From positions 126,363,741-126,427,740 of the forward strand of contig CM041465.1 of the NCBI GenBank assembly GCA_023213395.1: a stretch of DNA of 64,000 nucleotides, read 5' to 3'. Position 1 is the first letter of the stretch; every line of letters begins with the position of its first letter. Under the pieces are notes generated by a model that did no database searches, was not told the DNA's origin, and worked only from the letters and a program-made list of their open reading frames with translations. This DNA is from Cycas panzhihuaensis. Taxonomy: Eukaryota; Plantae; Cycadophyta. The position numbers and the translations under genes were made by a program. This document shows positions 8,801-61,400 of the stretch, piece after piece.

Positions 8801-9664
8801 CAATGGATCAATTGAGATATAAGGATGGATAAATTTAACAATGCTAATAATTTTTGTATTAAGTGAATGATAGTTTTCAAGAGTGATAATCAAGAGAAGG
8901 GTGATACGAGACAATGTGAAAGGTAAGGTAGATACACGTGTTATATTTGGCAATGGAGCTATAAATGTTGAATATATTGTCATATAAATATGAGATGAGA
9001 ATAATTGGTAGGGAAACAAGTTGGGGATGAGAAGTATATGGGCGGTGTAAGTGAACGCAATGAATGTGGGCACTTTAGAAATAGAGTCATGGAGTATTAA
9101 TTCAATGAGTATTAAGGGTTTTTCATAAATATGATGATCTCGATCATAGTAGTGATTGTCTAGATGATGGTAAAAGAAATAATGTTAGGAGGTTAACCAT
9201 AATCAAAGGTTATAAGAGAGTTAAATTCAAGAATGGTACGGACTTGTATATAATAATGGTTATTAAAATTGACATCTATAAAGACTAAACAAAATGACAA
9301 CTATTAGGTAATACAAGGTAATATGGTAGTCAGTAGCTAGGTGTGTGTAATGTTACTAGCAAGCGTAACATTATGGGAAGTAAAAGTGATAAGCATGATG
9401 CAATGGTGCTATTTTAAGGCATTTACTTAGATACATACAATTACCTCATAATTCTATGGGGTTGGTAGGGAGTTAATGAACGATTGCATTGTAAGATCTC
9501 CATCAACGTGACTTAAACAATTTGCATAAACTTTTCACTATTTATATACACACATAAGCAAGGAAGTTAATAGAGATTACCTAAGAGTTATCAAAGTACA
9601 AAAACCTTTGCATGGGTCAAGGTTTAGAAATTGTTAAGGAACTCCTTGCAAAGGATGTCTCTAG

Positions 9665-20469: not shown

Positions 20470-20969
20470 GATCACCTCTCTCATCTAATGGTTAAATCTA
20501 GGTTCAAAGAAAGTGATCTACCTTATTTGTAAAAGAATAAGTACTTTGAGATATTATGTATCTTGATGTATTTTGTATATGCAAGAAGATAATTTATATC
20601 TTCTTGTTGTTTAGGAGATTAAAGTCAAATAATTATTGTTGAACTAATTTCTAGGTGTGATGTTGATGTACTCTAAAGTAAATAAATAGGAATTCATTAT
20701 TTTGAATCAAATAAGAAAACCAATGACAAAAAAGAGTTAAATTTAAGAATCGAAATGTTTACTAGGCGAATAAAGGGCGTAGAAACATTGTTTTCTTTCA
20801 TTGTGTTTGGGCGTTACTAATATTGACAACACAATGTAGATGATGCACTATCGAAGCGAATGATTCCCAGGGATTACATCTACCTTCATTTTAGTTTGTA
20901 GAAATGGTGCTTCAAAGCTTCCTTAGTAGAAAGACGTTCCCTTGGGTCAAACTTCAACAAACCTCGAAG
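20470..20969 (-). pseudogene. Truncated kinase 3' fragment
   Basis: Aligns with 5933-6421; same fusion junction. Confidence 0.85.
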
Positions 20970-23790
20970 ATGGGGTGTTGTTTGAAGAAAACGTCTTCTT
21001 TAAGGTCTCTGTTGAGGAAAGTACCCTTCACATCTATTTGCTAAATATGTCGATTAAATTAGATTGCTAAGGACATAACCAAATGGAATGTGATCACATT
21101 GGCTATCGGTGCAAAGGTCTTATCATAATCAATCCCCTCTTGTTATTTAAAAGCTCTTGTTATAAGGCGAGCTTTGCGAGTGTCATACTTTGTAAGGCCT
21201 TTTAGCAGTTATGGGAGGAGGAACATCCATTAATAATTGTTATACCCATTAGGATTTAGTTGAATGCTAGTGGCTTCCACCTGAAGTTCATCAACTAAAA
21301 TTGGAGGTAAAGTTATACTTTCTTGAGTTGTTGATGTAGATGCTCTTTGGAATCGATGAAGGAGAATTTGTAGGAGGAGACTAGTTTTGATGGCTCCACA
21401 ATTTGTCCAAGAGTCACTTAAGATACATAAACTACTTCTACTACTATAATATAAGGTTGAGGTGAAGGTAGGTCCTATGAATCTTCTATAAATATTATAT
21501 CTCGTGTTGCGTAAACTTGGTTACCAACTATGTCAAACACTTTATAGGCTTTACAACCAAGTACATAGCTAAAGAAGATGCATTTTAGGCTCTTGTCATC
21601 AAGCTTCTTTTCATTTTCCTTTGAAATATATTTATATTCCATGCATCCAAAGAATTGCAGTACTATCGATGGTTTCGACTGACCAAACTTCTTCAAGAGT
21701 AATATTCCTAAGTGCAATTCTAGGACTTATGTTGGTTAGGTAAGTAGTTATGGTTGTGGCATCAACCCAAGATCTAGTGGTAAGATTTGCAACACTAAGC
21801 ATGGCTTCTCCTTTATTTATCAATGTCTAATTCATTCTTTTGACTACACCATTTTGTTGAGGTGTGTGAGGAGTTGGGAGGCGATGTTGGATGCCATGTT
21901 CTCTTGCCCAAAATGTTGAACTGATTAGAACTATACTCTAAGCCACCATTATCAGATTTAAGGAGCTTGATTATCATTCTACTTTTCTTTTTTATGGCAG
22001 CTTTGAACTCTTTGAATTTATTTAGGGTTTTATACTTTTTTCTCAGGAGATAGACCTACATTTTCCTTGAGAAGTCATCTATGAATGTGATGAAATGCCA
22101 GCTTTTATTGAGTGGTTAGGCAGTCTGCCGATCTGCGAATTTCTGGGTGGACCGTCTCTAACGGCGTTGAGGATCTCCATGCGTTCTTAGAAGGAAAAAT
22201 TTCTCTTTAGTGCTTTTCTATTAGGCAAGCCTCACATATGTTGTTGTACCTCTTAATTTTATGTAAACCATGTACCATTTGGAGCTTAAACATGAGGTCC
22301 AAGCTTTGCATGTTTAAATGACTTAGGCATTAATTCCATAGGTGTACTTTGGAGCTATTTGAGATGATAATTTCCTTTCAATATGAGAATTCACCTGGTT
22401 CTTATATCTGAGACTCTTCATTAATGACTTCATTTACCTTATCAATTTGAGCTATGTTGGGAATTGAACAAGCTTCATTTTATGGAGTAGTTGTAAGGGG
22501 GATACCACCCAACCTATATAGGCCACCATCTTCATATCTTATGGCCACAAGCTTGCACGTTGCATGATCTGCGATTCTACTAATGTCCTAGACAAAGAGG
22601 ACATCTAAATTCTGTTTGTTTATTTCATTGATATAGGGCAAGTTCATCTCCATTTCAGGTGCAAGGAATATATTATTGATGTGGTGCCTCATATTGGAGT
22701 CCTTCAAAGCTATTGGAGCCCTACCAATTTTGGTATTATCGTAAGTCAAATTATCCCCAAATGTGATAGTTTAAGTATCGACTGGGCGGGTCTCTTCTAA
22801 TATTTTTTCTAATCCGATCATATATCTCGTTGCACCTGACTCAAGGAGCCATGCATCCTCATCAAGTTGTGAAGAAAGAGCTGCAAAGAATAGGTGATGG
22901 AAGGAGGAATCCTAATTGTCTACCACATTACTTTCCTATTATTTATTATTATCTTTGGTTTCTTTAATTTTTGATAGTGAATTGTAGCTTATTTTGAGGT
23001 CTTTCTCCTTGAGCAGGTCTCTGATTCCAATTGTGTTGGTAGAATTGGCCTTGTGGTTGGAATGATGACCCTTCTTATTGTTGAATAAGGCCTCTTCATT
23101 GGAAATATAGGCCTCCTTGTTACAAAATAAGACCTCGCTATTATGGAAACGGGGCTCTTTGTAGAAGGCACGATCCTCCTTAGTAATATCCTTGTCTCTA
23201 TTAAGAGTAACTAGGACCTCCTTGTTGATATGAGGGTGGTCCTTATTAGTAGATTAGGCCTAATGGTTGATAATAAGAGGTAGCTTATTAGAAGTGAGGC
23301 CTATATGATTGGCTCAATTGATTTTACAAGAGTTGTGAATCAACTTGTCCTCACTTGCATTAACAGAAGTGCCTTTTTTTATCATAGTAGAGGCAACTGA
23401 CATATGGTCTAACCTATTAATTCTTTTAAAGTTGTGCATATGGCTGGTATTGAGGCTAGCGATGCCCGATGAGTTAGGCAGGAGGAGGAGGAGGTGTTAA
23501 TTGGTTATTACTTCTCTTAGGTTGGTTGTTGATATGGCTCTTGGGATATGGTCAGAGAATCCAAGTGTTGAGTTAGATCTTGGTGTTGACTAAGCTGTTG
23601 AGTTGATCTATTAATAGTCTTACGCTTTTATGAGTTATGAAATTTGTAAAGGTAGGAGCGGGGTTAGATATACATGTCGCCCCAAGTCAGTCAGTTGAGT
23701 ATATTCTCCTCTTATAACAAGAGTTCCTCACAGGTCGTGAAGTCTATTTTGGAATAATTACCATTTAATTTGGAAACAAAGGAGTTATAT
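20970..23790 (-). mobile_element. Decayed Copia remnant (subunit copy)
   Basis: Homologous to 11192-14000. Protease-like AWLLESGATRYM at about 22820-22855. Confidence 0.7.
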
Positions 23791-27956: not shown

Positions 27957-29128
27957 TCATTTTAGTTTGAAGAAGTGGTGGTTCAAAGCTTCGTTAGCGG
28001 AAAGACGCTCCCTTGGGTCAAACTTCAACAAACCACGAAGCAAATCAATGAGGGCTTCTGATGAGAGATCCCCATTTTGATTGACAAGATTCCGCAGGCG
28101 AGGCAATCTCTGGACTAGTCGAACTCTGTCTCTGGATGCAGCCCCCCGTGGCCAGTTGAGTTCCCTACCATTTCTAATGTACTCCCTTCCACAATCAGCA
28201 GCCCATTTTATCATATGTTGAGGAATTGGTCCCAATACCCGTTGCATCATTGCAAGGTGTTCCAAATCATCATCGGTCTGAAAAAGGGCATTTCCACAGA
28301 ATAATTCCGCCAAAACGCACCCAACACTCCACAAATCGATAGGATAACTCCATCCAACACCCATTACCACCTCAGGTGCTCGGTAACCTCTCGTGGTAAC
28401 TACCTTGCGATGGTATTGGTTCTGGAATGTGGCATTACCAAAATCTATGAGTTTAATTGCACTCGACGAGGGAATGCACTTATAACGATTCTTACGATCC
28501 GAAGAATTCTTGTCATATTCCGAGGAGACGAGAAGAATGTTATCAGGCTTTAGATCAGTATGTGAGAGAGTGAGCTCATGAATGAATGCAACAGCCTCCA
28601 ACAGCTGACGTGCGAATTCCCGAATCAGAACAACAGACAAGGGCCGGTGATTGTTTCTACGTAATAAATCGTATAAACTCGGTCCAAGCTTTTCACAAAC
28701 AATGCACACATGGGCACCAAAATGAAACCAAGTCTTCAATTTCAGGCAGCCTCGGGATCCATTGGTATCAAACTCTGCTATCCTGCGAAGAATGTCAATT
28801 TCAGTCATAGCTGCAACACCATATTGCCATTCACTGCGGATAACCTTGATGGCTACATGCTCTTGCTTTTCACCGTCCCAACAATCTAAAACTCTACCAA
28901 AAGTTCCTTCGCCCGGTTGCTAATAATCCTGTACCGAGATGTTATGTTTTCTCCAACCTCAAACACGTAGTGCCCATCTTTGTTATCCGGTCGCCATGGA
29001 TGGGACGCAACAGCATGTACATGGTTAGATCTCATCTCATCACGCTCCTTTTTCTTCCCGTGATTGGACCGTGACTCTTTAATACGACGACTTGTGGAAG
29101 GTTGTTTATAATAAACTGCGCTCTCCAT
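27957..29128 (-). CDS. Second, near-identical copy of the intronless LAMMER/CLK kinase; one 1-bp frameshift at ~28915
   Basis: Same motifs. This copy reads 'gcccggttgc' where copy 1 reads 'gcccagtttgc'. Restoring the base gives the same 390-aa ORF. Confidence 0.9.
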
Positions 29129-30399
29129 ACCAAAACCTCTTCCAAGAGATCAACCGAGCGATTATTTCAGCGTGTGTATCGAATTATTTTCGATCCTAGA
29201 TACTTTGCAGAAATTATTGAACCGCACAATAACAGTACACACAAGTTAAAGCGCCTCCACACACAATCGAATTGTGATGTCTTACCGTACAACTTCCTAC
29301 TTACTATATATGGATTCAGGTATGCGTGCGGCCGACTTATAGCTGAGGCGGCCCACAACACACAGAGACACCATAGGCATGTCCTTATTCAGCACGTCTC
29401 TCTGCTCAGAACTCCTCCCCGTCCTCTTCCCTTAGGGAAGGATAGCATGGAGTAATTTTATTGGACGGCTATGCCCTTGCCAATACCTCTCGTCATCCCA
29501 AAAACTAGAACACTTTACAAAGAATCGCATCAAGGACACGACTAAGGAAACCGTCATAGCGCATGTGAAACCGAGTCAACTCATTATCTTCTAAAGACGC
29601 TTCATACCATTAATGCTCTCATTTACTTAGAATAACGGTTCATACTCCACCTTGCTCTGGAACCTTATCTTAAATCCTACCACCGTGTCTTCATTTCACA
29701 ATTGTTGAAGGCACTTATTTCTAAAGGACATCCGATGTTGCCACTAGAATGTATCTATGATGATGGAAATGTAAGATAGAAGCCACAGCCAATAACGTGG
29801 TATCAAATGATAGCTTGCATACTCAAAATTAAGGCTCTCTTAAACATTATTAATGGAAATTAGAAAAGACTTGAAAAGTGCGTTAACGACAAGAACTCAA
29901 GCACAAACAAACCATAATAAATACGAATAATGGAAAATAGAAAGAACTCAATCTATGGTTATTTGGAAATGCCATTTATGGATACAACGTTTGAGATGGG
30001 TTATGCTAGAAGGATTACAGTGGGGTTTATCAGAGATGATGGAAACATGATATGAACCGTCATGAACAACCTCAATTACTGCAAAAGTACCGTGCCAACA
30101 AGAATGAAATTTATCGATGCAAATTCATCATTAACTTTGTCAAAAAGAAAAATGAGTCCAATGGGGTAAAATAAAGAAAGAAAAACAGTTTGATCATATT
30201 TTAAATTAGGTTGCATTTTGATATCTTCTAGATTGTTTAAGTCACGCAGGCTATCTTCACCAACCTTTTCTAGCTTAATGAGCCAAGTCTCAAATGCTAT
30301 GCAATTCAAAAGTTGGTTGCAAATATCTGAATAAAGGGAATGAATTTTACTTTTAATGGGAATTATAGATTCTAGACCATAAACTAGAGAAGATGTGAC

Positions 30400-32962
30400 T
30401 GTTTCCCAGCTATTGGGAATGGACTCGAGACGCATCGACACAGGTGGGTGCAGGTATATGCTTTTACTTTGCTTGCTTACGATTGCTGAAGTAATCTAGG
30501 ATGGTTTGATTGACATGTGCCTGCCTACATGCATTTGTTTGATTGCCTGTTCATAATGCATGTGCCTAACGGCACCTCTTAGCCTATGACGACTCACAGC
30601 GGGGGCATTCATTAGCGAATGCGACACCCCGTATGGCGTACGACCACTCATGATGTCTCCATGGTCTTTTGGGATGCTTTTGCCAGCCTGTTTATTCGTG
30701 CTACCACATGCCACTTATGTTGCAAACCCTTCCTAAGCCCGGTTTGACCCTTAGTTAGGACTCTTTGCACCGTTTGAGTACTTGCCTATGGCCTAAACCT
30801 GCTTTTAATTAATGCATTTCAATTTTAACTTATGATTTTACCCTAAAAACTGGATTTCCTATATTATTTTTCTGTTTTTCTGAGTTTCGGGTCCGCATCA
30901 TGATAAACTAAGCGATCTGGAGTTTCCAGTGATCGCTGAAGTTTGTGATTTGATCGCTTAAAATTCGAAAAAGAGAAGCCGCTGACAATGGCGTTTCTTG
31001 TGGCTGCTGCGTGGCTCCCAACCGTTGGAGGCGCCCGAGGGCCCCCAACGTTTACTTGCTTTGCTCAAGGCATAAAAGCCCTTTTCTTACTCATTTGTGA
31101 TAATTCTCTACTTCATTTTTTGGACTCTCTACTTCACTCTCTCAAGTTTTCTAGAGCATTTCTTCATAAAAGAAAAAGACCAAGAAGCATTGACAAGAGG
31201 CATCCTTCCACAACTGCGGGACAGAGGTACCAAGGGCTGCTATAGCTGGAGTTGCAGGGCCGTTGCCGCCTCCTACGGAGCTCCAATACAAGCACTCTTC
31301 CTCCTCATACACACCCAAGGTTTTCAAGGGGATTTCTCATCAAAAACAAAAAACACTACAAAGAGCCATTCCCAGGCTCTCAACTTGCATGAGGCTTTAC
31401 CACCCTATTCTCTTGCAAGGGACATGCAACACCACCTCATAGGCATCGTTTGGACCGCTGCTCCAAGTTGCCAAGTGCCTACATGCACTCATTCTTCACC
31501 GTTCGAGGTATTTAGTGTCTCTTGTTGAGTGGTTTTTTTTGCTTGTTTTTTATTGTTTATTTGCAAATCTTTTCCTACCTTTGCACATGCATTTCCTTGA
31601 GTTTCCTTCGGTCATTTGATGCACAGAACCGTAGCAATTGTGGCCTATTGGAGTGTTGCCCTAGACTAGGCCCAGTTTCTCACTTTTCCCTAAACTCATC
31701 CTTTTCCTCCAACCCCTCTCTTTCACCATTTCCTAGGCTAGCCGGCATAAAGGGTTACACGAGGATTCGAGGGAGGTAGGCGGGGTTCCGTCCCCCATTG
31801 CCGTCCTACTCCCCAAGGGTTCCGTCCCTTATCCTCTCCCCCTTTATCTCCCACACTCGCTTAGGAAACGGGGCTAGAGAAGCTTTGCAGAGTCAGTTTG
31901 AGTACCCGTCTTGGCATAGGCTACCCGTTGCTACACGAACCGTTCTGTTACATGCTAGCACCGCTTCCCTATACCTTGTGGAGACCTCTCGTGGGTGAGT
32001 TAGCCATCCCGAGGCTACACTCAGTCCCATTTGGTGCATTCGTGGTGTATGACAGTTGCATAGTTGTCGTGTGACTTCGTTTCTTTTTCGTTGCATGCTA
32101 GTGCTGAACTATATTTCCCTAGCTTAGTCAGTTTCATTTACGGCATATACATATATATATATTTCCGTGTTTCGTAGCCTCTCTCCCGAGAGGAGGGTAT
32201 TCTGTTTGATTGTTCGCAGGAGCGCTCGGGAGGAAGGGGCGCAGGAGATCGACCCGTTGCCGGTCGACGCTTGCATGGTACGCTTCCCTTCGTTTATGCT
32301 GTTTTGAGTTTTACTGCATTATTTCAGTTTAGCTAGTCCTTGCTTGCTTTTGGGGAGGTAAGTGGACCCCTTTTATTGCCTTCGACCGACGTCATATACG
32401 AGGAGGACGGCGGGAGGAAGCGCAACCGTGGAGGGAAACCTGCGTCTCTGCCCAAACGCCGGATCCAGGTATTTCCCGCGTATCTTTCATACTCTCTTTT
32501 GTGCTCTTACGTTTCTTGCATTTATTTTAATAGTTAAAGGAACATAAAAGAAAAAGAAAGAATCATTTACTTTACGCTTGCTTTTCCTGTACATTTGCTT
32601 TACTTGCACCTTTTTTATTATACGCCGCATACCATAGTGCTCGGAGACCCTTTGATCGGTCCCCCTTGGCCATCTTTACCCTGTACCTGTGACACGTTTG
32701 GTTGATTGCCCCCCTCGTCGCCTTCTCATTGCCTTGATAAGCTGCGACGTGCGAGGTTCCTTTTCCCTTCCCGGCCATCCGAAGGGTAGGAAGGCCTCGC
32801 CTTGCACGCCACTGGGAGCAACCAGCACCTCGATCCGTGCACTCCGCTCCGGCCAAGACGGACGTCCTGCGAGGTATGATCCTCGCTTTCTAGCTTGCTT
32901 AGCATATTATTTTATGCCCTTCCCGCTAGACGTTGGGTCATTGCCCCGTGGAGAGCGTTTCA
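30400..32962 (+). repeat. 5' LTR of the Gypsy element (2563 bp)
   Basis: TGTTTCCCAG...GAGCGTTTCA; direct repeat of 41481-43984. Confidence 0.95.
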
Positions 32963-32963
32963 C

Positions 32964-32981
32964 TGGCGACCATACTGGGGA
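32964..32981 (+). promoter_or_regulatory. Primer-binding site, tRNA-Arg-like
   Basis: TGGCGACCATACTGGGGA lies 1 bp after the LTR and resembles the Tat/Ogre PBS TGGCGACTCCACTGGGGA. Confidence 0.7.
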
Positions 32982-33143
32982 CTGCCAGTAAGGGAGCTAA
33001 ATCTGCTTCCCCTTCTTGTTGGTGTTCTTGCCTCTAGGTAGGTTCGCATTTCGTGTTTTCGGTTGGGCAACCCCCAACGCATTTGCATTACTTTTTCTTC
33101 TTTCCCTGCTCGCTTCTTCTAACGCCGCTCGTAAGGGCGTTGC

Positions 33144-35528
33144 ATGCGACGTTTCTCGCGTCGCCTGCGAGGCTTGCCGCCGTTGTCGGAAGACCGAGCT
33201 TCTCGCCCCTCTCCATCGTCGAATCCCGATTCGACCATGGAAGGTTATCCTTCTGATTGGGCATATCGTCCCATGGCTTCAGGAACTCAGGAGTTCCCCT
33301 CATCCGTTCCGGAATCCACCCATGAGGGCGATGATTCCATTTACTACCTGGATGACCATTTCCACCCGGATGACTTTCGGCCTTCCGCTCAAGCAGCGGA
33401 TGATTCGGACCCTCACGAGACTCACCACCCTGCTGGTGAGCCTTACGAGGGGCGCCCCGAAGGATCCCCTACTTTCGAAGTCCCTTCGACCTCGTACGGC
33501 TATGAGGATACCCCTCCCGCTGATGCGATCGAGGCGTTTAGCGAGTGCTTTCGCGCAGCTCGCCGCCAGCCGCCTCCTAGATGGTTCGCGGAGATGCTAC
33601 GCAACGTAGCATCTTCTTCGTCCATGCCCGCATCATCTACGACAATTGACGCCCCTACCCGCGCGTACACTTCCTATGCCGTGTCCACCCCGGCTCCGAA
33701 GGCAAGTGTTACGCCTCCTGTTTCCTGTTGTGGCCCTACTTCCTCGGGGCCCATTCGTGGTGTGTCTTTTCCTCAACTTGGGGTTAGCATGCCATGCCTT
33801 AGTCAAACGCACGCGCCACCTTCGAACGTGACGCATGCGTTCCCTAGTAGGCCTCGTGGTCCTTCTAGTGCTGCCACCGCTAGCCATGTAGGACCCACTC
33901 CTACATATGGCCAGAACCCGACTGGTGGTCCTTCTCTTTACGTACCCCCAGGCTACACCGCTCAACCTTGGGGGCAGGGCAAGGGGAGCCATCTCCCTGT
34001 TTATGGGGTGGATCCGTTGCACCCATATGGGGTTGCGCCACCTACGGGTGGCCCATATGGGCAAAACCCGGTCTCTCATCCTCTGTTTCCGTCGTCCAGC
34101 AGAGCTCCCATCGCCGCGTCATCGCAAGGGAGCGTGCCCCTTTTCCAAAGCTTTTACCCGCAGCCCCCTTTCCAACAAGGGGCCTTTTCCCAAGGAGGGA
34201 TGGGTTTGCCACCCCCATCCATTCCTTTACCGGTTGTCGACCCGTTAGCCCAAGCAAGGACACGTCCTTTCGTGGACTATAGGTCGACGCCATTGTCTAT
34301 AGAGGCGCTAAGGACTAACCTGCCGCCTCACCCTCCTGAAGTTCCCAAATTCGACGGGACTTCGTCGCAAGACCCAACCGAGCATGTGCGCAGCTTCTCT
34401 ATGGCGTGCATCGATTATTGGGCTTACGACCATATACTCATGAAGCTCTTCCCGCGGTCCTTGCAGGGCGATGCCCTCAAGTGGTTTTACCGCCTTCCTG
34501 CCCATTCGATCTCCTCATTCCAGCAGCTAGTGGACGAGTTCGTCAACTATTTTGACGTGGCTCGCCCATTCGAGAGCGGAATGAAGGTGCTTCTGTCGCT
34601 CAAACAAGGTCACGATGAGATGAATCGTGATTTTGTGCGACGTTTTCACGATCTCCTTCACTCCACCAAGGCTACGTTGCCTGAGGAGTTGAAGAGAGAC
34701 CTTTTTGTCAATGCACTTCGCCCCGAAGTGCATGTGGAAGTCCTCAAGATGGGGGCGACCACGTGTGACTCCGCCATCTCGAGGTGTTTAGCTTTGGAGG
34801 CCATTGAGATCCAAGCAGGACTCAAGAAACCTCCCAAGCCCTCGCAACGTCGCGAGGCGCCTCCTCCGGTGAAGGAGACCACACCTTCGCAACCTGCTAG
34901 GTCCACCTCTCATCCGACTGAGAGGACCCTAGATCCCCTTACTTCTGCTATTCGCTCATTCGAGCGCGCGATGAAGGAGTTAAAACTCCAACCTCCTTCA
35001 TCGCCAACCTCCCATAAACCTGTCCAGCAGACTTCTCGTGCGATGCCCCCCAAAGGGGGCAACACCCAACCTTCTCAAGCAAGGAGGATTGACCCTCCCC
35101 TTGAGAAGAGGTGGTGTTCTATCCACGGGGAGTGCTTCCATGACGATTCGCGTTGCCGGGCACAGCACCCATACAATGCCCCGCCGCGCGACTCGTCCCC
35201 TAGGCGGACATCGAGGCCTAACCTCGATCAGCCCATTCATAGAGACTCGTTCCCCAAACATGGGGAACGTGGTCGCGATGTCCAGCGAAGGAACAGCTGG
35301 AATCGGGATAGGTCTCCCGATTCCCGCCCTTCGCATGGTAGAGGGAAGGGTGTGCGAAGGTCGCCTTCCCCTTCGCGCTCCCCTAACCGCCGTGCTCCTT
35401 CGCCTTCGCAGTCCCGCTACAAGGGAAAGAAGGTTGTCCAATTGCTTGAGACCACCCCGTTATATGCCTTAACCCGGTCCCAAGCTGCTAAAGAGCGATG
35501 GTGCCTCTTCATCCACATCTCACCTTGA
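33144..35528 (+). CDS. gag: Gag of the Gypsy element (Pro-rich N-terminus, Retrotrans_gag core, CxxH..H..C knuckle, RS-rich tail); probably continuous with protease before indels
   Basis: Motifs PKFDG..DPTEHV, LFPRSLQGDALKWF, LKQG..E..RDFVRRF and WCSIHGECFHDDSRC. Confidence 0.85.
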   Translation: MRRFSRRLRGLPPLSEDRASRPSPSSNPDSTMEGYPSDWAYRPMASGTQEFPSSVPESTHEGDDSIYYLDDHFHPDDFRPSAQAADDSDPHETHHPAGEPYEGRPEGSPTFEVPSTSYGYEDTPPADAIEAFSECFRAARRQPPPRWFAEMLRNVASSSSMPASSTTIDAPTRAYTSYAVSTPAPKASVTPPVSCCGPTSSGPIRGVSFPQLGVSMPCLSQTHAPPSNVTHAFPSRPRGPSSAATASHVGPTPTYGQNPTGGPSLYVPPGYTAQPWGQGKGSHLPVYGVDPLHPYGVAPPTGGPYGQNPVSHPLFPSSSRAPIAASSQGSVPLFQSFYPQPPFQQGAFSQGGMGLPPPSIPLPVVDPLAQARTRPFVDYRSTPLSIEALRTNLPPHPPEVPKFDGTSSQDPTEHVRSFSMACIDYWAYDHILMKLFPRSLQGDALKWFYRLPAHSISSFQQLVDEFVNYFDVARPFESGMKVLLSLKQGHDEMNRDFVRRFHDLLHSTKATLPEELKRDLFVNALRPEVHVEVLKMGATTCDSAISRCLALEAIEIQAGLKKPPKPSQRREAPPPVKETTPSQPARSTSHPTERTLDPLTSAIRSFERAMKELKLQPPSSPTSHKPVQQTSRAMPPKGGNTQPSQARRIDPPLEKRWCSIHGECFHDDSRCRAQHPYNAPPRDSSPRRTSRPNLDQPIHRDSFPKHGERGRDVQRRNSWNRDRSPDSRPSHGRGKGVRRSPSPSRSPNRRAPSPSQSRYKGKKVVQLLETTPLYALTRSQAAKERWCLFIHISP

Positions 35529-35849
35529 TCCTCCTCCGGAAGCTATTCCTCTGGAGATTCCTGCGCTTCCCAAGACTATTCCCGTCCGCCCCGGTAGATT
35601 CGACTTTAGAATGGCGCTTACCCAACCCACAGGGAAGGGTAAGCCCTTTTCTATCGTTGACGAGCTCTACACCGTCGCCGCGGGAATGTCCTTGATGGAC
35701 GTCTTCGCCCCGAGCAACGTGCTCTTCTTCTTGAAGCTCTTGGCCAACAAGATGCTTCCATCCAGGCGATAGGTGCTACCTCTCATGGACCACCTATAAT
35801 TTCATTTGATCCCAGAGATCTCCTATCTCCCAGCAAGCGGGAGAAGCTT

Positions 35850-36374
35850 TTGCATTACCCATTCATCATTACCATTGACACTCCTAATTGTATCATAAAG
35901 AGGACCGTTGTAGATAATGGCTCCTCGGTTAATGCTATGCCTGTGCGTATGCTCAAGGAGCTAGGCATAGTAGCTCTTGAGTCTGTCCCTTGCAAATGCC
36001 AAGGGTATGATGGGACTGCGAAGTCCCCTCTACGGGCAGTCTCCCTTTCCCTCACCTTAGGAGGGAAAACTGTTTCTGTCGAAGTTGCTGTACTCGATGT
36101 CGATGTGGAGTACAACCTCTTGTTGGGCCGACCATGGCTCGACCAGATGGGAGCAGTCTGCTCCACGCAATGGGGGCAACTTAAATTTGTCCATGAAGGA
36201 CGAGTTAAAGTTGTCGCCCGTGAGCCAATGCCGTCTCACACCTCTCATCCACCGCCAGTTGTTTCGATGATGAAGATAGTGATCCTGAGGAGGCTACCCC
36301 TTCTGCGGGACCTTTGTTTCAGGAGACCGACCTTCATCAGTCGGACCCTATGCCGTGCCATGAGCCAAACCTAA
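35850..36374 (+). CDS. Retropepsin-type aspartic protease fragment
   Basis: Catalytic motif VVDNGSSVN and YNLLLGRPWL. Confidence 0.85.
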   Translation: MHYPFIITIDTPNCIIKRTVVDNGSSVNAMPVRMLKELGIVALESVPCKCQGYDGTAKSPLRAVSLSLTLGGKTVSVEVAVLDVDVEYNLLLGRPWLDQMGAVCSTQWGQLKFVHEGRVKVVAREPMPSHTSHPPPVVSMMKIVILRRLPLLRDLCFRRPTFISRTLCRAMSQT

Positions 36375-36876
36375 TTATGTTTGCCCCTATCGGCGTAGGT
36401 GGTTACGGTTGCTTGCCCATCACAGGTGATTCTGATTCGGATAGCGAGGGTTATGGGCCCTCTCCTCGACGCGTCACCCTGGTTTCGCAAGCACCTAGGG
36501 GAATATCTCGATCGGATATTCCCGCTCTTCCTCATTCTACATTGGCTTTCCGAGTCACCGGTCTTAAACCAGCCATTTATTTTACCTTCTCGGCCTCCTC
36601 GAGCGGTTTCATGTAAGCGCCCACGTCGACGAGCCACTCGTAGAGGCACTTCTTCTTCACGCTCTAGATCCTTACCTCGGACTAAAGCCACTCTTACTCG
36701 TATGCAACCCTGCCACGAGATCCGTCGTGTGCCAGGTCCGTTGCGCTCATCTAGTTCTATCCATAGTAAGTTTACTAGTATGCTTAGCGATACTGGACCT
36801 ACTCTTCGTCACCTATCTCCTACCCTGCGTGTGACTACCCCTACCTTTATGGGGTCTAGGCATACCTCTTCCTCTC

Positions 36877-37046
36877 TTCTTGCTCCGAAACGAGCCTAAA
36901 CTACCATTTTAAATTATTTCCATTCCTCCCAACCATGGGTTGAATGGCAGTTTAAGATGGATTCTTGCTCCGAAACGAGCTTAAACTACCATTTTAAATT
37001 GTCTCCATTCTTCCCAATCCTGAGTAGAATGGCAATTTAAGATGGG
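36877..37046. repeat. Two tandem 85-bp repeats, each able to form stem-loops
   Basis: 'ttcttgctccgaaacgagc' occurs at 36877 and 36962. CCATTTTAAATT..CCATTC can pair with GAATGGCA(G/A)TTTAAGATGG. Confidence 0.8.
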
Positions 37047-37730
37047 TTTTCAGTTTTCTTAGGTTCCTCATGGAACCCGCGTTCCCGTACTCTTGGGAAC
37101 CTTTGTCTTCCTACTTTGGGCATTCCTCAACCTAGGACGACGCTGCGGAGTATCGTTACTCCCCTCTTCATGCTTGTCGTTTCCCTCGCATATTCCGCTA
37201 TGCTCCCCTGTGGACGTGCATGCCGCCCTATCTTCTAACCTCATGCCTCTCGATCACCTCTGCTCACGGTGGATACGTGTGCTCCTGTTAGACGTATGGC
37301 CATGCACAGAAGGAAACGCCTGGATATTTACAAAATTTTACAACAAAACATATACATTTACACATTCACATATTTACATATTAACATTTACAACATAAAA
37401 TTATTCATTTACAAAATAAGCCATACATACTATCTCTCTCATACATGGTATGCACCAGCTCATGTCAAAATGGGGCTCCAATTGCCCCGTATGTGTATAT
37501 ATCAAAAATGTCATAGTACATCGTGTATGTGGGAAGCCGGGATCCTTGCAGGGGGAGTACAATCATGTGAGTCTACATATGACCCCCTGGAGGCCCGTGC
37601 TTTCCCGCCAAAATCATACATATGTGCGTCCTCGGGTCTACTACTGTTGTCCGGACCCGGGGGTCCCATCTCCTGGCCTGTGTGATCCCTCTCCTGGGGA
37701 CTACATCCCTGCGAGGCTCCTCCACAGGCC

Positions 37731-40007
37731 TCATGAGCCTGCCTCGCTCTCCTCGTCCCGTGGCCGTCTCGGGGTCGTAGCCGCTGTGTGGGTTTGTGTC
37801 CGGCTCCTGCTCGACCTCGAGACCATCTCGGCCACCAGCTGGTCGTAGCGGACCTGGATGCGGTCCCTCTCGCCCCGTAGTCCCTCCTCGACGATTCTCG
37901 CTCTATCCTCCAACGCCTTAAGGCGCTCCTCTAGGACTGCGAGGCGAGTGCTGATCCCTGCGTCCCCTCCTGCTCCGCTCTGGCTCCTCGAAGCCTGGGC
38001 CTCTGCAACCCAGATGTCTCGCACCCTCACCAGTGGGGCGAATGCCCGCATGTAGGCTCCCGTCGATCTAGGCGCATCCTTTGCCTGGATAGGCGGTTGT
38101 CCCTCTGCGTAGACCTGAGGGAACAACTCCCTCATCGCAGCCTCGACCAGTCTCTGAACCTCCGCTACGCCTGCCAATGCAACATGCAGTGTGTCAGTGT
38201 GTATCCTCGATGTGTATAAAGCAAAATCAGAATCAAATCTCTGTCTAGATGTCAAACGACTAGGGGAACGGTTAGGTCTCACCTGCCGTGGCCGCCGGAC
38301 TCCCTGCTCGGGCGACATCTCCCTCTCCTGGCTCCCCGCCAGCTGCCGGTGCCTCATCCTCAGGCACATCCTCTGCCTCTGCCTCGTCTCTAGCAGGGAT
38401 TGGCTCAACTCTCGCCCCTCCGGATCTCCTCACGATCCGGAGCCTGCGCCCCCTGGTCCCTGTAGCCCTGCTCACCTCCGCAGCTCCTGATGGGCCTGCC
38501 CCTCCTGTGGTAGCCCCAGATGATCCTGCTGCACCTCCCGACGGCTGTGACGGACCTGCCTCTCCTGCAGGTCGTGATGGGCCGGCCCCATCTCACCCGT
38601 CGTCACTGTCGTCGCCCCCATCGCCCCCATCGGCGCCATCATCGTCGCTATCCTCGATGGGTGCTCCTCCCTCTGCTGGGTCATCGCTCGCCCACCTCAC
38701 CGCCCTGTATGGATCCGCCACGTAATCTGTCAGGGTGAGGAGGTCGAGCGATGTCGCGTCGACCGACCGGCGGACATGAGGCTGATCCTCTGTCCCTCTG
38801 AACCTCGTCTGCCACCTGTGGACCATCGGGGCCCACCTCGCTATGGGGAATGGCCCCCCTGCTGGCGCCACTACCGCAAAGTGATCAAAGAACCAGCACT
38901 GCAGTAATGTGCTGTATGAGAGTCCGCCTCTCCCCGATCTCCTGATAGCGTCTAGTTGGGCGATAAGGTTCGCCGCAACCAGGGTCGCCCAATCCATCCT
39001 CTCGCCGGCCTCACCTGCCGTCCTGGCCCACCCATCCTCCGAGGATCTCCTCAGAGTTACATTCCGGGAGATCCGGAACAGAATGCATAGTAGTATGAGC
39101 TTCCTCACCCGAGGAATCCCCGACATAAGTACTGTCTGGAGGGGAGCTCCCCTCCGCTGCCACCTAGCTCCCCCCGTGAGGAACTGAGCTGCCTCCGTGT
39201 GTGCTGCCTCATTGCTAGGCAGCGCCCTCAGTCTCACGGGTCTCCCCGTCGCCGGCACCCCCAGGATCCGCCTGACATCCTCCGGAGTGACGGTGACATC
39301 CCCTATCTGGGGCAAGTGAAATACGTGTCTCCTCCTATCCCAGTGCGACACTATGTCCACCAGGAGCCTCTGATCCGATGCGAACTGGGGGGTCTTCAGG
39401 GCCTTGTACAGCCCGCATCTCTTCAAGACCGCTCTATCATCCTCCGTCGACATCTCCAAATAGCTCAGGATGGGCATGCCGACGTTCTCGCGGTTATCTA
39501 CCGCGGTGACTACCTGTAACCAGTAAAAGCCAGCCAAAGTTAGTCTCCTAGCAGTCACCTAGGCTCCTAGCTATCCTGTCAGTTGTTTTCTCTGCTTTTG
39601 GGAGCTATTTGGGCCCCCGTTTCTTGTTTTACGATTTCCTGCCTGCGTACCGCTCCAAATTTAGCGGTACCGCTAAATTCAGAGCGGGCCCCGCGGCAAT
39701 CAATACATCAGCAAAGATCGCGGTGCCGCGATCTTTCTGCAGATCACGTGACATTCTAAAAAGGGGTTTTTGCCCCCGAAAATCAAATTTTTTTGTGGTG
39801 GACCCCACGTGGGGCCCAAGGACCGTGGTCGCCTAATGCCTGTGTCCCGCCTCTTGCCGAGTCCGATTCAGACTCCGAGGGGCTTCTAACCGCCCATAAG
39901 GGGCGTAAAAAGCATTAAAATTGAAGCTAAAAGCAATGAACTTCAAATTGTGAAATGACTAGGTTTTCGTTGGATCCACTCACCGGATCCGGTCTGACGG
40001 TCGCCAT
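37731..40007 (-). CDS. Antisense three-exon plant mobile domain (PMD, aminotransferase-like) gene; exons 40007-39984, 39513-38283, 38170-37731; one in-frame TGA at 38593-38595
   Basis: PMD motif IVSHWDRRRHVFHLPQIGDVTVTPEDVRRILGVP. Donors CCG|GTGAGT and CAG|GTGAGA; acceptors CTAAC..TTACAG| and CTGAC..GGCAG|. Both splices preserve the frame (565 codons). Confidence 0.8.
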
Positions 40008-40167
40008 GGGGTCTCCGGGATCGTGGCAACTGTCTCCTCGCGTAGATCCAATGGTCGGATCGTCCTCGGTGTGCCTCTGAAGTCGGGTAGCGCTCCGCGT
40101 CGTAAGGAAAAGGCTCTGGTTTCGTACGAGAGCCGGTGAAAATGAATCCGGTTTTCATTGATTTTCC

Positions 40168-40174
40168 TTATATA
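40168..40174 (-). promoter_or_regulatory. Putative TATA box (TATATAA) for the antisense PMD gene
   Basis: CCTATATAAGG on the minus strand, about 160 bp upstream of the exon-1 ATG, in a GC-rich context. Confidence 0.5.
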
Positions 40175-40705
40175 GGCGGGGGCCCCGGCGGGCACTTCTC
40201 CCGTTTTTGGCTTCGTGACAGTCGTTGGGACCGTCTCGTCGCGCTGATTACCTTTGCCTTCTGGCCCTGCCGCCCATTGCGTTCCATGGATGCCCTTCTC
40301 GTTTTCCTTTACGAAGGCATTTATGGCGCCTCATTATGGCGCTCTTGGCAGGGCCCTTTTGCACCGTTTTGCGCGCTGCTCCCGAGCATGCCCAAGTTTA
40401 TACTTGTTTGGCTCGTTTCGCTGCCCTGGACTCATTTTTGCGGCCTTTTCTTGCCCCTGAGGCTCCCAAAAGAAATGCTCCCCTGTCTGGGGGCATGTGT
40501 TGCTTCCCGGAGCAACTTTTGGGGACTCTAGGGCGCCCTTTTTCTGCCTACTCTCAGTCAGTGCCCTGATGGCTTGCTCTCGTTCTTGGGTAACCTCATT
40601 GCTAGGTCCTCCTACCCTTCGCGGCCCGCTCCGCGCCTGCTATTCGAGTCTTTGTGTTGCTTACATTACTATTTGTGATTGTTTACCAGAGTTTAGCATT
40701 CGACC

Positions 40706-41128
40706 ATGTCTCTCCTTATTTTCACCGATGGTGGGAGTCGCGGCAACCCCGGACCTTCCGCCGCTGCGTGGATTCTCCACAGCCCCTCCGGACACGACTA
40801 CCTGCGTTCCGGAGTCTTCCTTCCCGAGGCCACCAATAACGAAGCCGAGTACACGGCCATTATTGACGCCCTTACCGATGCTCTTCGTTTCCATCACGGT
40901 TCTATTGTGCTGTTCTGCGATTCTCAGGTTGTGGTGTCCCATCTCACCCAGGTTTATCAGGTGCGATGCCCTCACCTGAGAACCCTCGCGTCTGCCGCCA
41001 GGTCTCTCTTGGCTTGTTTCTCATCGGTGGATATTCAGCATATCCCCAGGCACCTCAACGCTGAGGCCGACAGCCTCGTCCGCCTCATCCTTGAGCGTCG
41101 CCTCCCTCTTCTTGATGACCGCCGCTGA
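40706..41128 (+). CDS. Stand-alone RNase HI (archaeal-type 'aRH' of Tat retrotransposons)
   Basis: FTDGGSRGNPG, ATNNEAEY, CDS and HIPRHLNAEAD: all four acidic catalytic residues are present. The ORF has its own ATG and stop. Confidence 0.9.
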   Translation: MSLLIFTDGGSRGNPGPSAAAWILHSPSGHDYLRSGVFLPEATNNEAEYTAIIDALTDALRFHHGSIVLFCDSQVVVSHLTQVYQVRCPHLRTLASAARSLLACFSSVDIQHIPRHLNAEADSLVRLILERRLPLLDDRR

Positions 41129-41480
41129 GGCTTGCCTGGCCAGCCCGTGCCCAAGTCTCCAGTTGCGGGCTAGTTAGATGTGCTTGCCCTGTTTGCCGGA
41201 TGCCCTCCTGCTTCACATTGCACCATGGTAACGGGGGCATCCCGTTCTTCTTGCTTGCTTGATTTAGATTCGATGATTAGGCAGCGTGGCGACCACTACG
41301 TTGTCCTCGTCTCTGTCTCCCTTGTCCACGCGTTCCGCCACGACACTTGCCTACGCCCTTGGACCACGTGCTGCTCTTTATTGTTTATATATATGCATGT
41401 GCTACTCATGTTTCTTGGTTGACAGCATTCGCCATCACATTACGCTTCCGAGCAGTGAGGCTCTACTGCCAAGGGGCCAG

Positions 41481-43984
41481 TGTTTCCCAGCTATTGGGAA
41501 TGGACTCGAGACGCATCGACACAGGTGGGTGCAGGTATATGCTCTTACTTTGCTTGCTTACGATTGCTGAAGTAATCTAGGATGGTTTGATTGACATGTG
41601 CCTGCCTACATGCATTTGTTTGATTGCCTGTTCATAATGCATGTACTAGCGGCACCTCTTAGCCTATGACGACTCACGGTGAGGCATTCATTAGCGAATG
41701 CGACACCCCGTATGGCGTACGACCACTCATGATGTCTCCATGGTCTTTTGGGATGCTTTTGCCAGCCTGTTTATTCGTGCTACCACATGCCACTTATGTT
41801 GCAAACCCTTCCTAAGCCCGGTTTGACCCTTAGTTAGGACTCTTTGCACCGTTTGAGTACTTGCCTATGGCCTAAACCTGCTTTTAATTAATGCATTTCA
41901 ATTTTAACTTATGATTTTACCCTAAAAACTGGATTTCCTATATTATTTTTCTGTTTTTCTGAGTTTCGTCTGGTAGTAGTAAACTAAGCGATCAGCGGAG
42001 TTTCCAGTGATGCCAAGTTTCTTGTGACGATCTGCTTAAAATTCGAAAAAGAGAAGCCTGACGGTGACGCGTTTTTGCGCGGAACTGCCTCGTGGCTCCC
42101 AACCGTTGGAGGCGCCCGAGGGCCCCCAACGTTCACTTGCTTTGCTCAAGGCATAAAAGCCCTTTTCTTACTCATTTGTGATAATTCTCTACTTCATTTT
42201 TTGGACTCTCTACTTCACTCTCTCAAGTTTTCTAGAGCATTTCTTCATAAAAGAAAAAGACCAAGAAGCATTGACAAGAGGCATCCTTCCACAACTGCGG
42301 GACAGAGGTAACAAGGGCTGCTATAGCTGGAGTTGCAGGGCCGTTGCCGCCTCCTACGGAGCTCCAATACAAGCACTCTTCCTCCTCATACACACCCAAG
42401 GTTTTCAAGGGGATTTCTCATCAAGAAAAAAAAACACTACAAAGAGCCATTCCCAGGCTCTCAACTTGCATGAGGCTTTACCACCCTATTCTCTTGCAAG
42501 GGACATGCAACACCACCTCATAGGCATCGTTTGGACCGCTGCTCCAAGTTGCCAAGCGCCTACATGCACTCATTCTTCACCGTTCGAGGTATTTAGTGTC
42601 TCTTGTTGAGTGGTTCTTTTTGCTTGTTTTTTTATTTGTTTATTTGCAAATCTTTTCCTACCTTTGCACATGCATTTCCTTGAGTTTCCTTCGGTCATTT
42701 GATGCACAGAACCGTAGCGATTGTGGCCTATTGGAGTGTTGCCCTAGGCTAGGCCCAGTTTCTCACTTTTCCCTAAACTCATCCTTTTCCTCCAACCCCT
42801 CTCTTTCACCATTTCCTAGGCTAGCCGGCATAAAGGGTTACACGAGGATTCGAGGGAGGTAGGCGGGGTTCCGTCCCCCATTGACGTCCTACTCCCCAAG
42901 GGTTCCGTCCCTTATCCTCTCCCCCTTTATCTCACTTTTCGCTTAGGAAACGGGGCTAGAGAAGCTTTGGAGAGTCAGTTTGAGTACCCGTCTTGGCATA
43001 GGCTACCCGTTGCTACACGAACCGTTCTGTTACATGCTAGCACCGCTTCCCTATACCTTGTGGAGACCTCTCGTGGGTGAGTTAGCCATCCCGAGGCTAC
43101 ACTCAGTCCCATTTGGTGCATTCGTGGTGTATGACAGTTGCATAGTTGTCGTGTGACTTTGTTTCTTTTTCGTTGCATGCTAGTGCTGAACTATGTTTCC
43201 CTACCTTAGTCAGTTTCATTTACGGCATATACATATATATATATTTCCGTGTTTCGTAGCCTCTCTCCCGAGAGGAGGGTATTCTGTTTGATTGTTCACA
43301 GGAGCGCTCGAGAGGAAGGGGCGCAGGAGATCGACCCGTTGCCGGTCGACGCTTGCATGGTACGCTTCCCTTCGTTTATGCTGTTTTGAGTTTTACTTTC
43401 TGTTATTTCAGTTTAGCTAGTCCTTGCTTGCTTTTGGGGAGGTAAGTGGACCCCTTTTATCGCCTTCGACCGACGTCATATACGAGGAGGACGGCGGGAG
43501 GAAGCGCAACCGTGGAGGGAAACCTGCGTCTCTGCCCAAACGCCGGATCTGTATTTCACGTATCTTTCATACTCTCTTTTATGCTCTTACATTTCTTGCA
43601 TTTATTTTAATAGTTAAAGGAACATAAAAGAAAAAGAAAGAATCATTTACTTTACGCTTGCTTTTCCTGTACATTTGCTTTACTTGCACCTTTTTTATTA
43701 TACCCCGCATACCATAGTGTTCGGAGACCCTTTGATCGGTCCCCCTTGGCCATTGCCTTGAGAAGCTGCGACGTGCGAGGTTCCTTTTCCCTTCCCGGCC
43801 ATCCGAAGGGTAGGAAGGCCTCGCCTTGCGGCCACTGGAGCAACCAGGGCACCTTGCGATCCGTGCAGCGCTCGCGCAAGCGGACGTCCTGCGAGGTATG
43901 ATCCTCGCTTTCTAGCTTGCTTAGCATATTACTTTATGCCCTTCCCGCTAGACGTTGGGTCATTGCCCCGCGGAGAGCGTTTCA
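41481..43984 (+). repeat. 3' LTR of the Gypsy element (2504 bp; lacks 56 bp relative to the 5' LTR)
   Basis: Same termini; preceded by a purine tract (aaggggccag). Confidence 0.95.
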
Positions 43985-44875
43985 GTGACAAATCCATTAG
44001 CTATCATGACAATGGATCAATTGAGATATAAGGATGGATAAATTTAACAATGCTAATAATTTTTGTATTCGTGAATGATAGTTTTCAAGAGTGATAATCA
44101 AGAGAAGGGTGATACGAGACAATGTGAAAGGTAAGGTAGATACACGTGTTATATTTGGCAATGGAGCTATAAATGTTGAATATATTGTCATATAAATATG
44201 AGATGAGAATAATTGGTAGGGAAACAAGTTGGGGATGAGAAGTATATGGGCGGTGTAAGTGAACGCAATGAATGTGGGCACTTTAGAAATAGAGTCATGG
44301 AGTATTAATTCAATGAGTATTAAAGGTTTTTTCATAAATATGATGATCTCGATACGCAAGTAGTGATTGTCTAGATGATGGTAAAAGAAATAATGTTAGG
44401 AGGTTAACCATAATCAAAGGTTATAAGAGAGTTAAATTCAAGAATGGTACGAACTTGTATATAATAATGGTTATTAAAATTGACATCTATAAAGACTAAA
44501 CAAAATGACAACCATTAGGTAATACAAGGTAATATGGTAGTCAGTAGCTAGGTGTGTGTAATGTTACTAGCAAGCGTAACATTATGGGAAGTAAAAGTGA
44601 TAAGCATGATGCAATGGTGCTATTTTAAGGCATTTACTTAGATACATACAATTACCTCATAATTCTATGGGGTTGGTAGGGAGTTAATGAACGATTGCAT
44701 TGTAAGATCTCCATCAACGTGACTTAAACAATTTGCATAAACTTTTCACTATTTATATACACACATAAGCAAGGAAGTTAATAGAGATTACCTAAGAGTT
44801 ATCAAAGTACAAAAACCTTTGCATGGGTCAAGGTTTAGAAATTGTTAAGGAACTCCTTGCAAAGGATGTCTCTAG

Positions 44876-50855: not shown

Positions 50856-51353
50856 GATCACCTCTCTCATCTAATGGTTAAATCTAGGTTCAAAGAAAGT
50901 GATCTACCTTATTTGTAAAAGAATAAGTACTTTGAGATATTATGTATCTTGATGTATTTTGTATATGCAAGAAGATAATTTATATCTTCTTGTTGTTTAG
51001 AGATTAAAGTCAAATAATTATTGTTGAACTAATTTCTAGGTGTGATGTTGATGTACTCTAAAGTAAATAAATAGGAATTCATTATTTTGAATCAAATAAG
51101 AAAACCAATGACAAAAAAGAGTTAAATTTAAGAATCGAAATGTTTACTAGACGAATAAAGAGCGTAGAAGCTGTTTTCTTTCATTGTGTTTGGACGTTAC
51201 TAATATTGACAACACAATGTAGATGATGCACTATCAAGAGCGAATGATTCCCAGGGATTACATCTACCTTCATTTTAGTTTGTAGAAATGGTGCTTCAAA
51301 GCTTCCTTAGTAGAAAGACGTTCCCTTGGGTCAAACTTCAACAAACCTCGAAG
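50856..51353 (-). pseudogene. Truncated kinase 3' fragment
   Basis: Aligns with 5933-6421; same fusion junction. Confidence 0.85.
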
Positions 51354-60901: not shown

Positions 60902-61400
60902 GATCACCTCTCTCATCTAATGGTTAAATCTAGGTTCAAAGAAAGTGATCTACCTTATTTGTAAAAGAATAAGTACTTTGAGATATTATGTATCTTGATG
61001 TATTTTGTATATGCAAGAAGATAATTTATATCTTCTTGTTGTTTAGGAGATTAAAGTCAAATAATTATTGTTGAACTAATTTCTAGGTGTGATGTTGATG
61101 TACTCTAAAGTAAATAAATAGGAATTCATTATTTTGAATCAAATAAGAAAACCAATGACAAAAAAGAGTTAAATTTAAGAATCGAAATGTTTACTAGACG
61201 AATAAAGAGCGTAGAAGCTGTTTTCTTTCATTGTGTTTGGACGTTACTAATATTGACAACACAATGTAGATGATGCACTATCAAGAGCGAATGATTCCCA
61301 GGGATTACATCTACCTTCATTTTAGTTTGTAGAAATGGTGCTTCAAAGCTTCCTTAGTAGAAAGACGTTCCCTTGGGTCAAACTTCAACAAACCTCGAAG
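60902..61400 (-). pseudogene. Truncated kinase 3' fragment
   Basis: Aligns with 5933-6421; same fusion junction. Confidence 0.85.

Follow-up and report, generated by a model that had tools for sequence, protein, structure and literature searches.

A 13.6-kb LTR retrotransposon of Cycas panzhihuaensis without reverse transcriptase but with a solo RNase H: probable member of a non-autonomous family close to the TatIII lineage

Introduction

Here we focus on a long terminal repeat (LTR) retrotransposon found in a 64,000-nucleotide stretch of the genome of Cycas panzhihuaensis (assembly GCA_023213395.1, contig CM041465.1, positions 126,363,741 to 126,427,740 of the forward strand), which we call the window and whose first letter is our position 1. 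The element, at 30400-43984, carries gag, an aspartic protease, a plant mobile domain (PMD) gene and an archaeal-type RNase H (aRH), and it has no reverse transcriptase (RT), no native RNase H (RH) and no integrase (INT). We think it probable that it belongs to a many-copy family of LTR elements that lack these three enzymes, a family that likely descends from the gymnosperm TatIII lineage and is likely mobilised by the enzymes of complete relatives. The loss of RT-RH-INT of this kind is known in sister lineages, and what is new is that a complete RNase H is kept without RT.

The element and its genes

The features of the element, and the empty site that corresponds to it, are as follows.

30395-30399, + strand: left copy of the target-site duplication (TSD), GTGAC, 5 bp, read from the sequence
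30400-32962, + strand: 5' LTR, TG..CA, 2,563 bp
32964-32981, + strand: primer-binding site (PBS), starting one base past the 5' LTR, read from the sequence
33237-35528, + strand: gag, open for 763 codons from its ATG; Pfam Retrotrans_gag, E 2e-9
35473-35711, + strand: gag-protease linker, in a frame different from that of gag, with breaks near 35495 and 35706
35712-36251, + strand: aspartic protease; Asp_protease_2, E 3e-6; DNG active-site motif, as in protein P0002
36252-36878, + strand: low-complexity tail, 628 bp, at the position of RT-RH-INT; no Pfam match; common to divergent copies
36877-37045, + strand: two 85-bp tandem units at the start of the 3' module, common to elements with other upstream sequence, some of it integrase-like
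37731-38429, - strand: antisense open reading frame (ORF) with a coiled-coil-like stretch (by eye and by a crude heptad count)
38593-39513, - strand: main exon of the PMD gene; PF10536, E 4e-16 to 5e-16
39514-39983, - strand: predicted PMD intron, 470 nt, phase 0, with canonical donor (39983), branch point and acceptor (39514)
39984-40007, - strand: predicted first PMD coding exon, ATG (40007) and seven codons, in frame with the main exon
40167-40175, - strand: TATA-like site, the single match in the spacer between PMD and RNase H, readable on both strands
40706-41128, + strand: solo aRH, 140 aa, with its own ATG; RVT_3 E 1e-20, RNase_H E 5e-13
41471-41480, + strand: short purine-rich tract, weak, resembling a polypurine tract (PPT), adjoining the 3' LTR; read from the sequence
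41481-43984, + strand: 3' LTR, TG..CA, 2,504 bp
43985-43989, + strand: right copy of the TSD, GTGAC, a perfect match to the left copy
8776-8780, + strand: empty insertion site in a duplicated host unit, from the comparison with the joined flanks

The boundaries of this TG..CA-LTR element are exact and enclose 13,585 bp. An earlier reading of the same DNA, made from its letters alone and called here the sequence-only reading, had reported a perfect TSD and an empty site one higher-order repeat (HOR) earlier, and both observations hold: GTGAC stands on both sides, and the joined flanks match the region 8681-8882, which lies 21.6 kb upstream in a duplicated host unit, at 98.5% over 202 columns. 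That reading had also named gag, protease, PMD and RNase H as the gene content, and all four are found by Pfam. The PBS is putatively of the tRNA-Arg type. Rfam gave no match inside the element.

The gag product begins with a long P/S-rich N-terminal part, followed by the capsid domain (about 34443-34724), whose relatives are 79-84% identical, by a Cx2Hx4Hx4C motif at 35115-35156, presumably a knuckle, and by an R/S-rich tail. After gag, the protease has no match in the PDB; among longer proteins it finds three distant matches (34-51% identity), none of them from this element family, and the 85 and 3 pattern matches obtained in JGI metagenomes and IMG/VR, respectively, include no confirmed related locus. 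The low-complexity tail that follows is similar to an acidic spacer between protease and RT, like the one in P0002. In this copy, gag, linker, protease and tail stand in different frames, with four breaks near 35495, 35706, 36255 and 36549. The earlier statement that gag and protease are kept is thus right for the two domains, which are both found, and fails for the frame, the protease being out of frame with gag. These breaks are likely private to this copy or to close sisters, since many reads from other copies in the raw-read run X24 differ in length there (22 of 67, 20 of 23, 22-41 of 55-66 and 17 of 36 at the four breaks).

The region where RT, native RH and integrase would be expected was scanned with Pfam in all six frames of 35500-41500, together with the three plus frames of 32964-35600, stops being read as X, and none of these families was found in the 15 frame translations at E values up to 5. 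This agrees with the sequence-only reading, which had recognised no RT or integrase motif between the protease and the 3' LTR, and it covers the interval 36400-37700, in which no remnant of either appeared. A hidden degenerate RT was considered and rejected: there are only 628 bp between the protease and the 3' module, which is too little for pol.

The aRH carries all four catalytic acids (D8, E48, D72 and D122), aligned with the known catalytic positions. Its best PDB matches are 4e19, 3u3g and 3hst (E 2e-22 to 2e-15), other RNases HI being at 1e-6 or weaker, and a single-sequence AlphaFold model of it reached a pLDDT of 42 and was not used. An acceptor-like site is found at 40689, 16 nt upstream of its ATG. 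On the other strand, the ORF at 37731-38429 is likely, judging from its sequence, the C-terminal part of a PMD-coiled-coil gene, and in this copy a stop at 38593 and a change of frame stand between it and the PMD. No homologue of the PMD protein was obtained from 4,089 candidates, and a 26-letter pattern of the module had no match in metagenomes. As side observations, PMD and aRH stand head-to-head about one two-way TATA-like site (39514-40706), and the sense genomic RNA would retain an intron that belongs to an antisense gene.

The LTRs and the age of the insertion

The two LTRs had been called very similar, which is true of their overall likeness of about 96% and leaves aside how their differences are arranged. 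In their alignment 103 of 2,493 sites are different (K 4.3%) and there are 13 indels. The differences form mosaic tracts: 82 of the 103 are clustered, against a mean of 57 and a maximum of 76 in 2,000 shuffles. K is 1.9% without the two large tracts and 1.3% without all seven, as masked by eye. Dense tracts lie at 30885-31012, 32682-32737 and 32815-32870 (compared with the 3' LTR), along with a 56-bp indel, and the remainder is 98-99% alike. Such a pattern points to template switching, recombination or gene conversion as its likely origin.

The duplicated flanks diverge by 0.9-1.5%, as against the 4.3% of the LTRs overall. At 2.2e-9 substitutions per site per year, the rate applied in the Cycas genome paper (PMC9023351), the LTR date would overstate the age (9.7 as against 3-4 Myr) because the divergence is clustered in tracts, and we place the insertion of this copy at about 2-4 Myr. 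The description of the element as recently inserted thus fits the copy and does not extend to its family, which appears to be much older than this insertion, since RT-less copies about 13% diverged are found in more than one organism. Further, the clean TSD means that an integrase from elsewhere would have been needed, if the element was already RT-less when it was inserted.

A family without reverse transcriptase in public reads and contigs

Part of the internal region is contained in 20 of the 24 listed public runs, which bear 10 organism labels and come from 12 studies (best share 0.53). In the four contig runs, which represent three organisms, all 30 bins are covered in each case, and between 125,355 and 155,091 contigs from about half of each run were placed on the element; these depths are not taken as copy numbers. 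The divergent reads and contigs are mostly 84-95% like the element. The raw reads of X24 show the same: 6,071 were placed, of which 39 are at 99% identity or more and 5,689 under 95%.

What matters most is the passage from the protease to the 3' module, where pol would be expected. The summed X24 depth per 100-bp bin is 222-284 in the capsid (five bins), 33-129 in the protease (five), 34-80 in the tail (six, 36219-36824) and 142-381 in the 3' module (five), and every 100-bp bin between protease and module is covered. Position 36863, which lies 16 bp left of the joint between tail and module, is covered by 83 X24 reads with about 35 different starts, and 70 of them have one common alternative letter. 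Since the depth is higher there than at 36784, where it is 28 reads, reads must cross the joint from the right. Moreover, a contig from another organism (organism C) bridges the joint from 36799 to 36916 with 15 of 118 letters different (87% alike). Taken together, these sequences indicate that the RT-less state is a trait of the family, a one-off deletion being very unlikely. They favour the non-autonomous family that the sequence-only reading had proposed: divergent copies have the RT-less segment and carry the joint from tail to module, so that RT and integrase are not present in all other copies. The particles of its own and the RT and integrase borrowed in trans, which that reading also proposed, are inferred.

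The rival explanation in which the deletion is specific to this copy, or has been repeated rarely, has to be judged on the same data. It would see in the tail the protease-RT spacer of complete elements, from which this copy or a few sisters lost RT-RH-INT, and the likeness of the tail to the spacer of P0002 fits it, as do the tail positions that no displayed piece bridges and the fact that about three quarters of the reads at the 3' joint (239 as against 83) have other upstream sequence. The unbroken depth, the letter shared by most of the 83 reads at 36863 and the 87%-alike contig of another organism are what it explains poorly, and we hold it to be improbable. That the assembly wrongly put together parts of a high-copy family is barely credible: the family is indeed extremely repetitive, as the contig numbers show, and it sits in a tandem array, but the perfect TSD, the empty paralogous site and the independent reads over the internal joint all speak for a real insertion.

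The 3' joint and a candidate complete partner

The 3' module is also met by other sequences. Immediately before 36879-36881, unrelated upstream sequence is found in 239 X24 reads, which are mixed (agreement 0.56), and in 6 reads of X21 (agreement 1), a RAD run of which only 35 reads were placed. The six X21 reads contain a short frame closed by a stop, in a pattern like that found at the ends of the polyproteins P0175 and P0215; these two proteins bear Pfam integrase domains, and 2 of the 13 inspected long gag matches end this way. It is therefore likely, as far as these sequences go, that integrase-bearing elements are joined to this 3' module too, where the 85-bp repeat starts. As the integrase-like ends meet the module at the joint, the right edge of the loss would lie just past the integrase stop. 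Reads with the tail of our element make up 83 of the 322 at the joint, roughly a quarter, and the remaining ones may come from complete elements or from more distant RT-less ones. We also observed that the copy number of the 85-bp unit varies among family members, the joints skipping or going back 86 bp, and that this unit starts where the lost region has its 3' edge.

Lineage and comparison with known elements

The TG..CA LTRs, the TSD, the PBS, gag and protease are features of the Ty3/gypsy type, and an archaeal-type additional RNase H with DEDD is a feature of the Tat clade. Within this clade, the gymnosperm lineage III is described with an aRH beyond the integrase and an antisense 3' PMD reading frame, its eORF (Ustyantsev et al. 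2015, PMC4408406). REXdb (PMC6317226) gives for TatIII a 5-bp TSD, a size of 12.7-17.3 kb and a PBS for tRNA-Arg in 64% and tRNA-His in 15%, and the hosts reported are Pinaceae, Ginkgo and Cycas. The aRH carried by a separate ORF (structure 3) is found in conifers, Ginkgo and Cycas, and it represents 68% of the Tat elements of Cycas panzhihuaensis (PMC10508981); its position is given there as 'upstream of pol', and a 2026 follow-up (PMC13468544) terms it post-integrase and solo. According to Biryukov and Ustyantsev (2023, PMC10508981), the native RH is degraded in all the aRH-bearing structures, which raised the question of how the separate-ORF aRH works.

Our element has its aRH ORF 3.8 kb past the integrase-end joint, an antisense PMD and a 5-bp TSD, and its 13.6 kb plus the roughly 3 kb lost would be within the TatIII size range. 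It thus resembles the elements known as TatIII or Tat H-I (PMC4408406, PMC10508981, PMC6317226, PMC13468544) in its separate 3' aRH, its antisense PMD eORF, its TSD, its large size and its gymnosperm host (inferred), and it differs from them by the lack of RT, native RH and integrase and by the coiled-coil-like ORF after the PMD. The architecture is likely the TatIII layout minus RT-RH-INT. The sequence-only reading had not recognised this architecture as a described one, and in this it has to be corrected: it corresponds to the published TatIII or 'post-integrase' layout without RT-RH-INT, and a like loss is known in ATHILA and Fatima. Because the TatIII surveys sort elements by their RT, RT-less copies are absent from them.

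Were the parent from a Tat lineage other than TatIII, such as the angiosperm lineage V, the aRH would have moved to the 3' end during the deletion. PMC4408406 describes the antisense PMD with a coiled coil for lineage V and with PMD only for lineage III, which would suit such a parent, and the likeness to TatIII comes from layout and not from a comparison with reference domains. However, an aRH that has its own ATG and stands on the far side of the PMD, 3.8 kb downstream of where the integrase would end, fits the solo post-integrase arrangement, and the flanking host kinase groups with gymnosperm sequences. We regard this origin as highly improbable.

Gag-protease derivatives have been described in several groups. 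The closest case is that of ATHILA, a sister lineage in which, across six Brassicaceae, 934 of the 2,322 elements are gag-protease-only and have lost about 3 kb of RT/RNase H/integrase (bioRxiv 10.64898/2026.03.20.713144, citing Wlodzimierz et al. 2023). Like our element, the non-autonomous ATHILA keep gag and protease, have cleanly lost RT, RNase H and integrase, are abundant and are common to several species; they have neither aRH nor PMD, whereas our element has a catalytically complete RNase H without RT. In wheat, Fatima has gag-plus-protease subfamilies for which labour-sharing with an RT/INT subfamily was proposed (PMC6097303). Both have a gag-protease-only form, but Fatima is an angiosperm element, for which the accessible passages of PMC6097303 report no solo aRH or PMD. 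In sugar beet, 29 non-autonomous GAG/PROT families are known (PMC13570524), and these 'semi-autonomous' elements, as well as TR-GAG, also keep gag with or without protease and have lost the enzymes. Compared with TR-GAG, our element is large (13.6 kb) and has two further genes, one of them for an enzyme of reverse transcription; this intact RNase H gene places it outside the TR-GAG definition, in which enzymes are absent, and in other respects it likely works like a TR-GAG. Finally, Retand and Grande (PMC7264820, PMC11963269) share with it an antisense ORF between pol and the 3' LTR, for which an own promoter is reported in Grande (PMC7264820), as well as families that are defective and recently active, as the Retand clusters are (PMC11963269). 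They carry TRP28 instead of PMD, and 10 of 63 defective clusters are without GAG, AP, RH or INT, which is another set than the one missing here. In the literature within reach, which includes the accessible parts of two Cycas genome papers and excludes most subscription journals, we found no description of an RT-less TatIII family or of a gag-protease derivative that keeps its aRH.

How the family could work

The scenario that we favour, a many-copy family mobilised by complete relatives, would run as follows. An ancestor would have lost about 3 kb of pol, from the protease spacer to the integrase stop. The RNA of its descendants, with LTRs, PBS and PPT, would be co-packaged with the RNA and Pol of complete partners that have the same 3' module, and Gag (plus protease in intact members) would be made in cis, which would favour the packaging of their own RNA. 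PMD and aRH would survive as separately expressed genes outside pol, head-to-head at the TATA-like site, with a PMD transcript that is predicted to be spliced. The aRH could serve reverse transcription as a free protein, because the native RH is degenerate in the Tat elements that have an aRH, and the PMD could act on chromatin at the element. Host PMD proteins are involved in silencing and in countering Polycomb (PMC5418596; bioRxiv 10.1101/2024.09.27.615353), and in the same papers an anti-silencing role is no more than a hypothesis, made for the DNA-transposon PMD-C and not for the retrotransposon PMD-A. The copy studied here entered a copia-derived tandem array some 2-4 Myr ago, and it has decayed since.

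Several points weigh against this scenario or against its details. The evidence for the family consists of short pieces, reads and contigs of public runs, among which no second full-length copy was seen. Indeed, 97% of the placed X24 reads continue unlike the element for 20 letters or more, and of the 638 tail positions the contig pieces displayed span 331 with at least 31 letters to either side, or 422 when variant spans are counted as well. The loose ends listed for X24 are those with at least 86 reads, so that smaller groups of reads leaving the tail towards an RT would be missed. The integrase-like end comes from six reads, perhaps of one locus, and the 239-read set is mixed (0.56). The TatIII assignment is made from layout, the element having no RT for phylogenetic placement. 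This copy is decaying, with four frame breaks past gag and a stop that ends the PMD frame. The splice and promoter sites are crude pattern matches, the acceptor of the PMD gene being third of 38 and that of the aRH third of 67. There is no sign of purifying selection, with no clear synonymous excess in the 33 listed differences typed in (synonymous in 3 of 8 for gag, 1 of 7 for the protease, and 4 of 7 and 1 of 9 for the two tail frames), a comparison of codons that is uninformative. Lastly, at 6.5% divergence the chance of an open frame is P 0.58 for the aRH and P 0.17 for the PMD.

This last point leads to the question of whether the accessory genes matter to the family. One answer is that the RT-less family is real and trans-mobilised, and that aRH, PMD and perhaps the protease are passengers, kept open only by repeated swaps of the 3' module and gag from complete partners during co-packaged reverse transcription. 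The LTR differences, clustered in tracts and exceeding the flank divergence, suggest recombination or conversion, and recombination between autonomous and non-autonomous Tat elements in soybean is cited in PMC4408406. The 3' module is common to other element types, aRH and PMD frames left open by chance would not be surprising, and the breaks around protease and PMD in this copy fit as well. Yet the long gag has remained open: for a gag of 753 codons the probability of gaining no stop is about 0.014 at 6.5% neutral divergence per lineage, and an open gag by chance is thus unlikely. The predicted PMD intron also counts against passengers, as it overlaps the bin 39625-39999, which among the internal bins has the lowest depth in all four contig runs, with better covered flanks, but all copies are counted there, complete ones included. 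We consider passenger genes a possible answer, and an unlikely one.

The other answer is that of a bipartite retrotransposon, in which an abundant RT-less TatIII family of related species would be selected to supply Gag, protease, a PMD factor and an active free RNase H, and a partner whose native RNase H is degenerate would provide RT and integrase. We find this doubtful, and rather unlikely as it stands. If it were true, the element would keep an enzyme of reverse transcription under selection while it has no reverse transcriptase. An aRH selected and expressed in RT-less copies would act as a free, shared protein, which bears on the question raised in PMC10508981. The comparison with RT-less copies would also test the benefit of the retrotransposon PMD genes, which are kin of host chromatin regulators (PMC5418596; bioRxiv 10.1101/2024.09.27.615353). 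More generally, surveys based on RT overlook RT-less copies, and a large part of a gymnosperm genome may be unclassified. The clean RT-RH-INT loss of the ATHILA type would be extended to another lineage, a question raised by the ATHILAfinder preprint.

The host array and its kinase copies

The host DNA of the window (1-30399 and 43985-64000) is a tandem array of degenerate copia-like units of about 4.85 kb, which are 90-94% alike and are organised in higher-order blocks 97.5-98.7% alike. Remnants of integrase, RT and RNase H were seen by eye in the translations of these units, and the contig depth of the left flank is 678 in run X2. This array may be a large retrotransposon-derived satellite. 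It includes the following gene copies, which are duplicated with it.

27957-29149, - strand: intronless LAMMER/AFC-type kinase copy
6341-7488, - strand: intronless LAMMER/AFC-type kinase copy

Short kinase fragments are found at 4148-4324, 20889-20999, 51273-51383 and 61320-61430. The kinase copy has one frame open for 320 codons and a break near its N-terminus. Its best match is a protein with a Ginkgo-style id (68%), and in a tree made with 30 of the 120 listed matches it groups with this id and a Picea-containing cluster, with a support of 100/100 and a long branch (a gymnosperm paralogue clade). It shares none of the 14 derived residues of the Picea-containing and sister clusters, and none of the 11 Ginkgo-derived ones. 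This kinase copy is likely a retro-captured gene that was amplified by the array.

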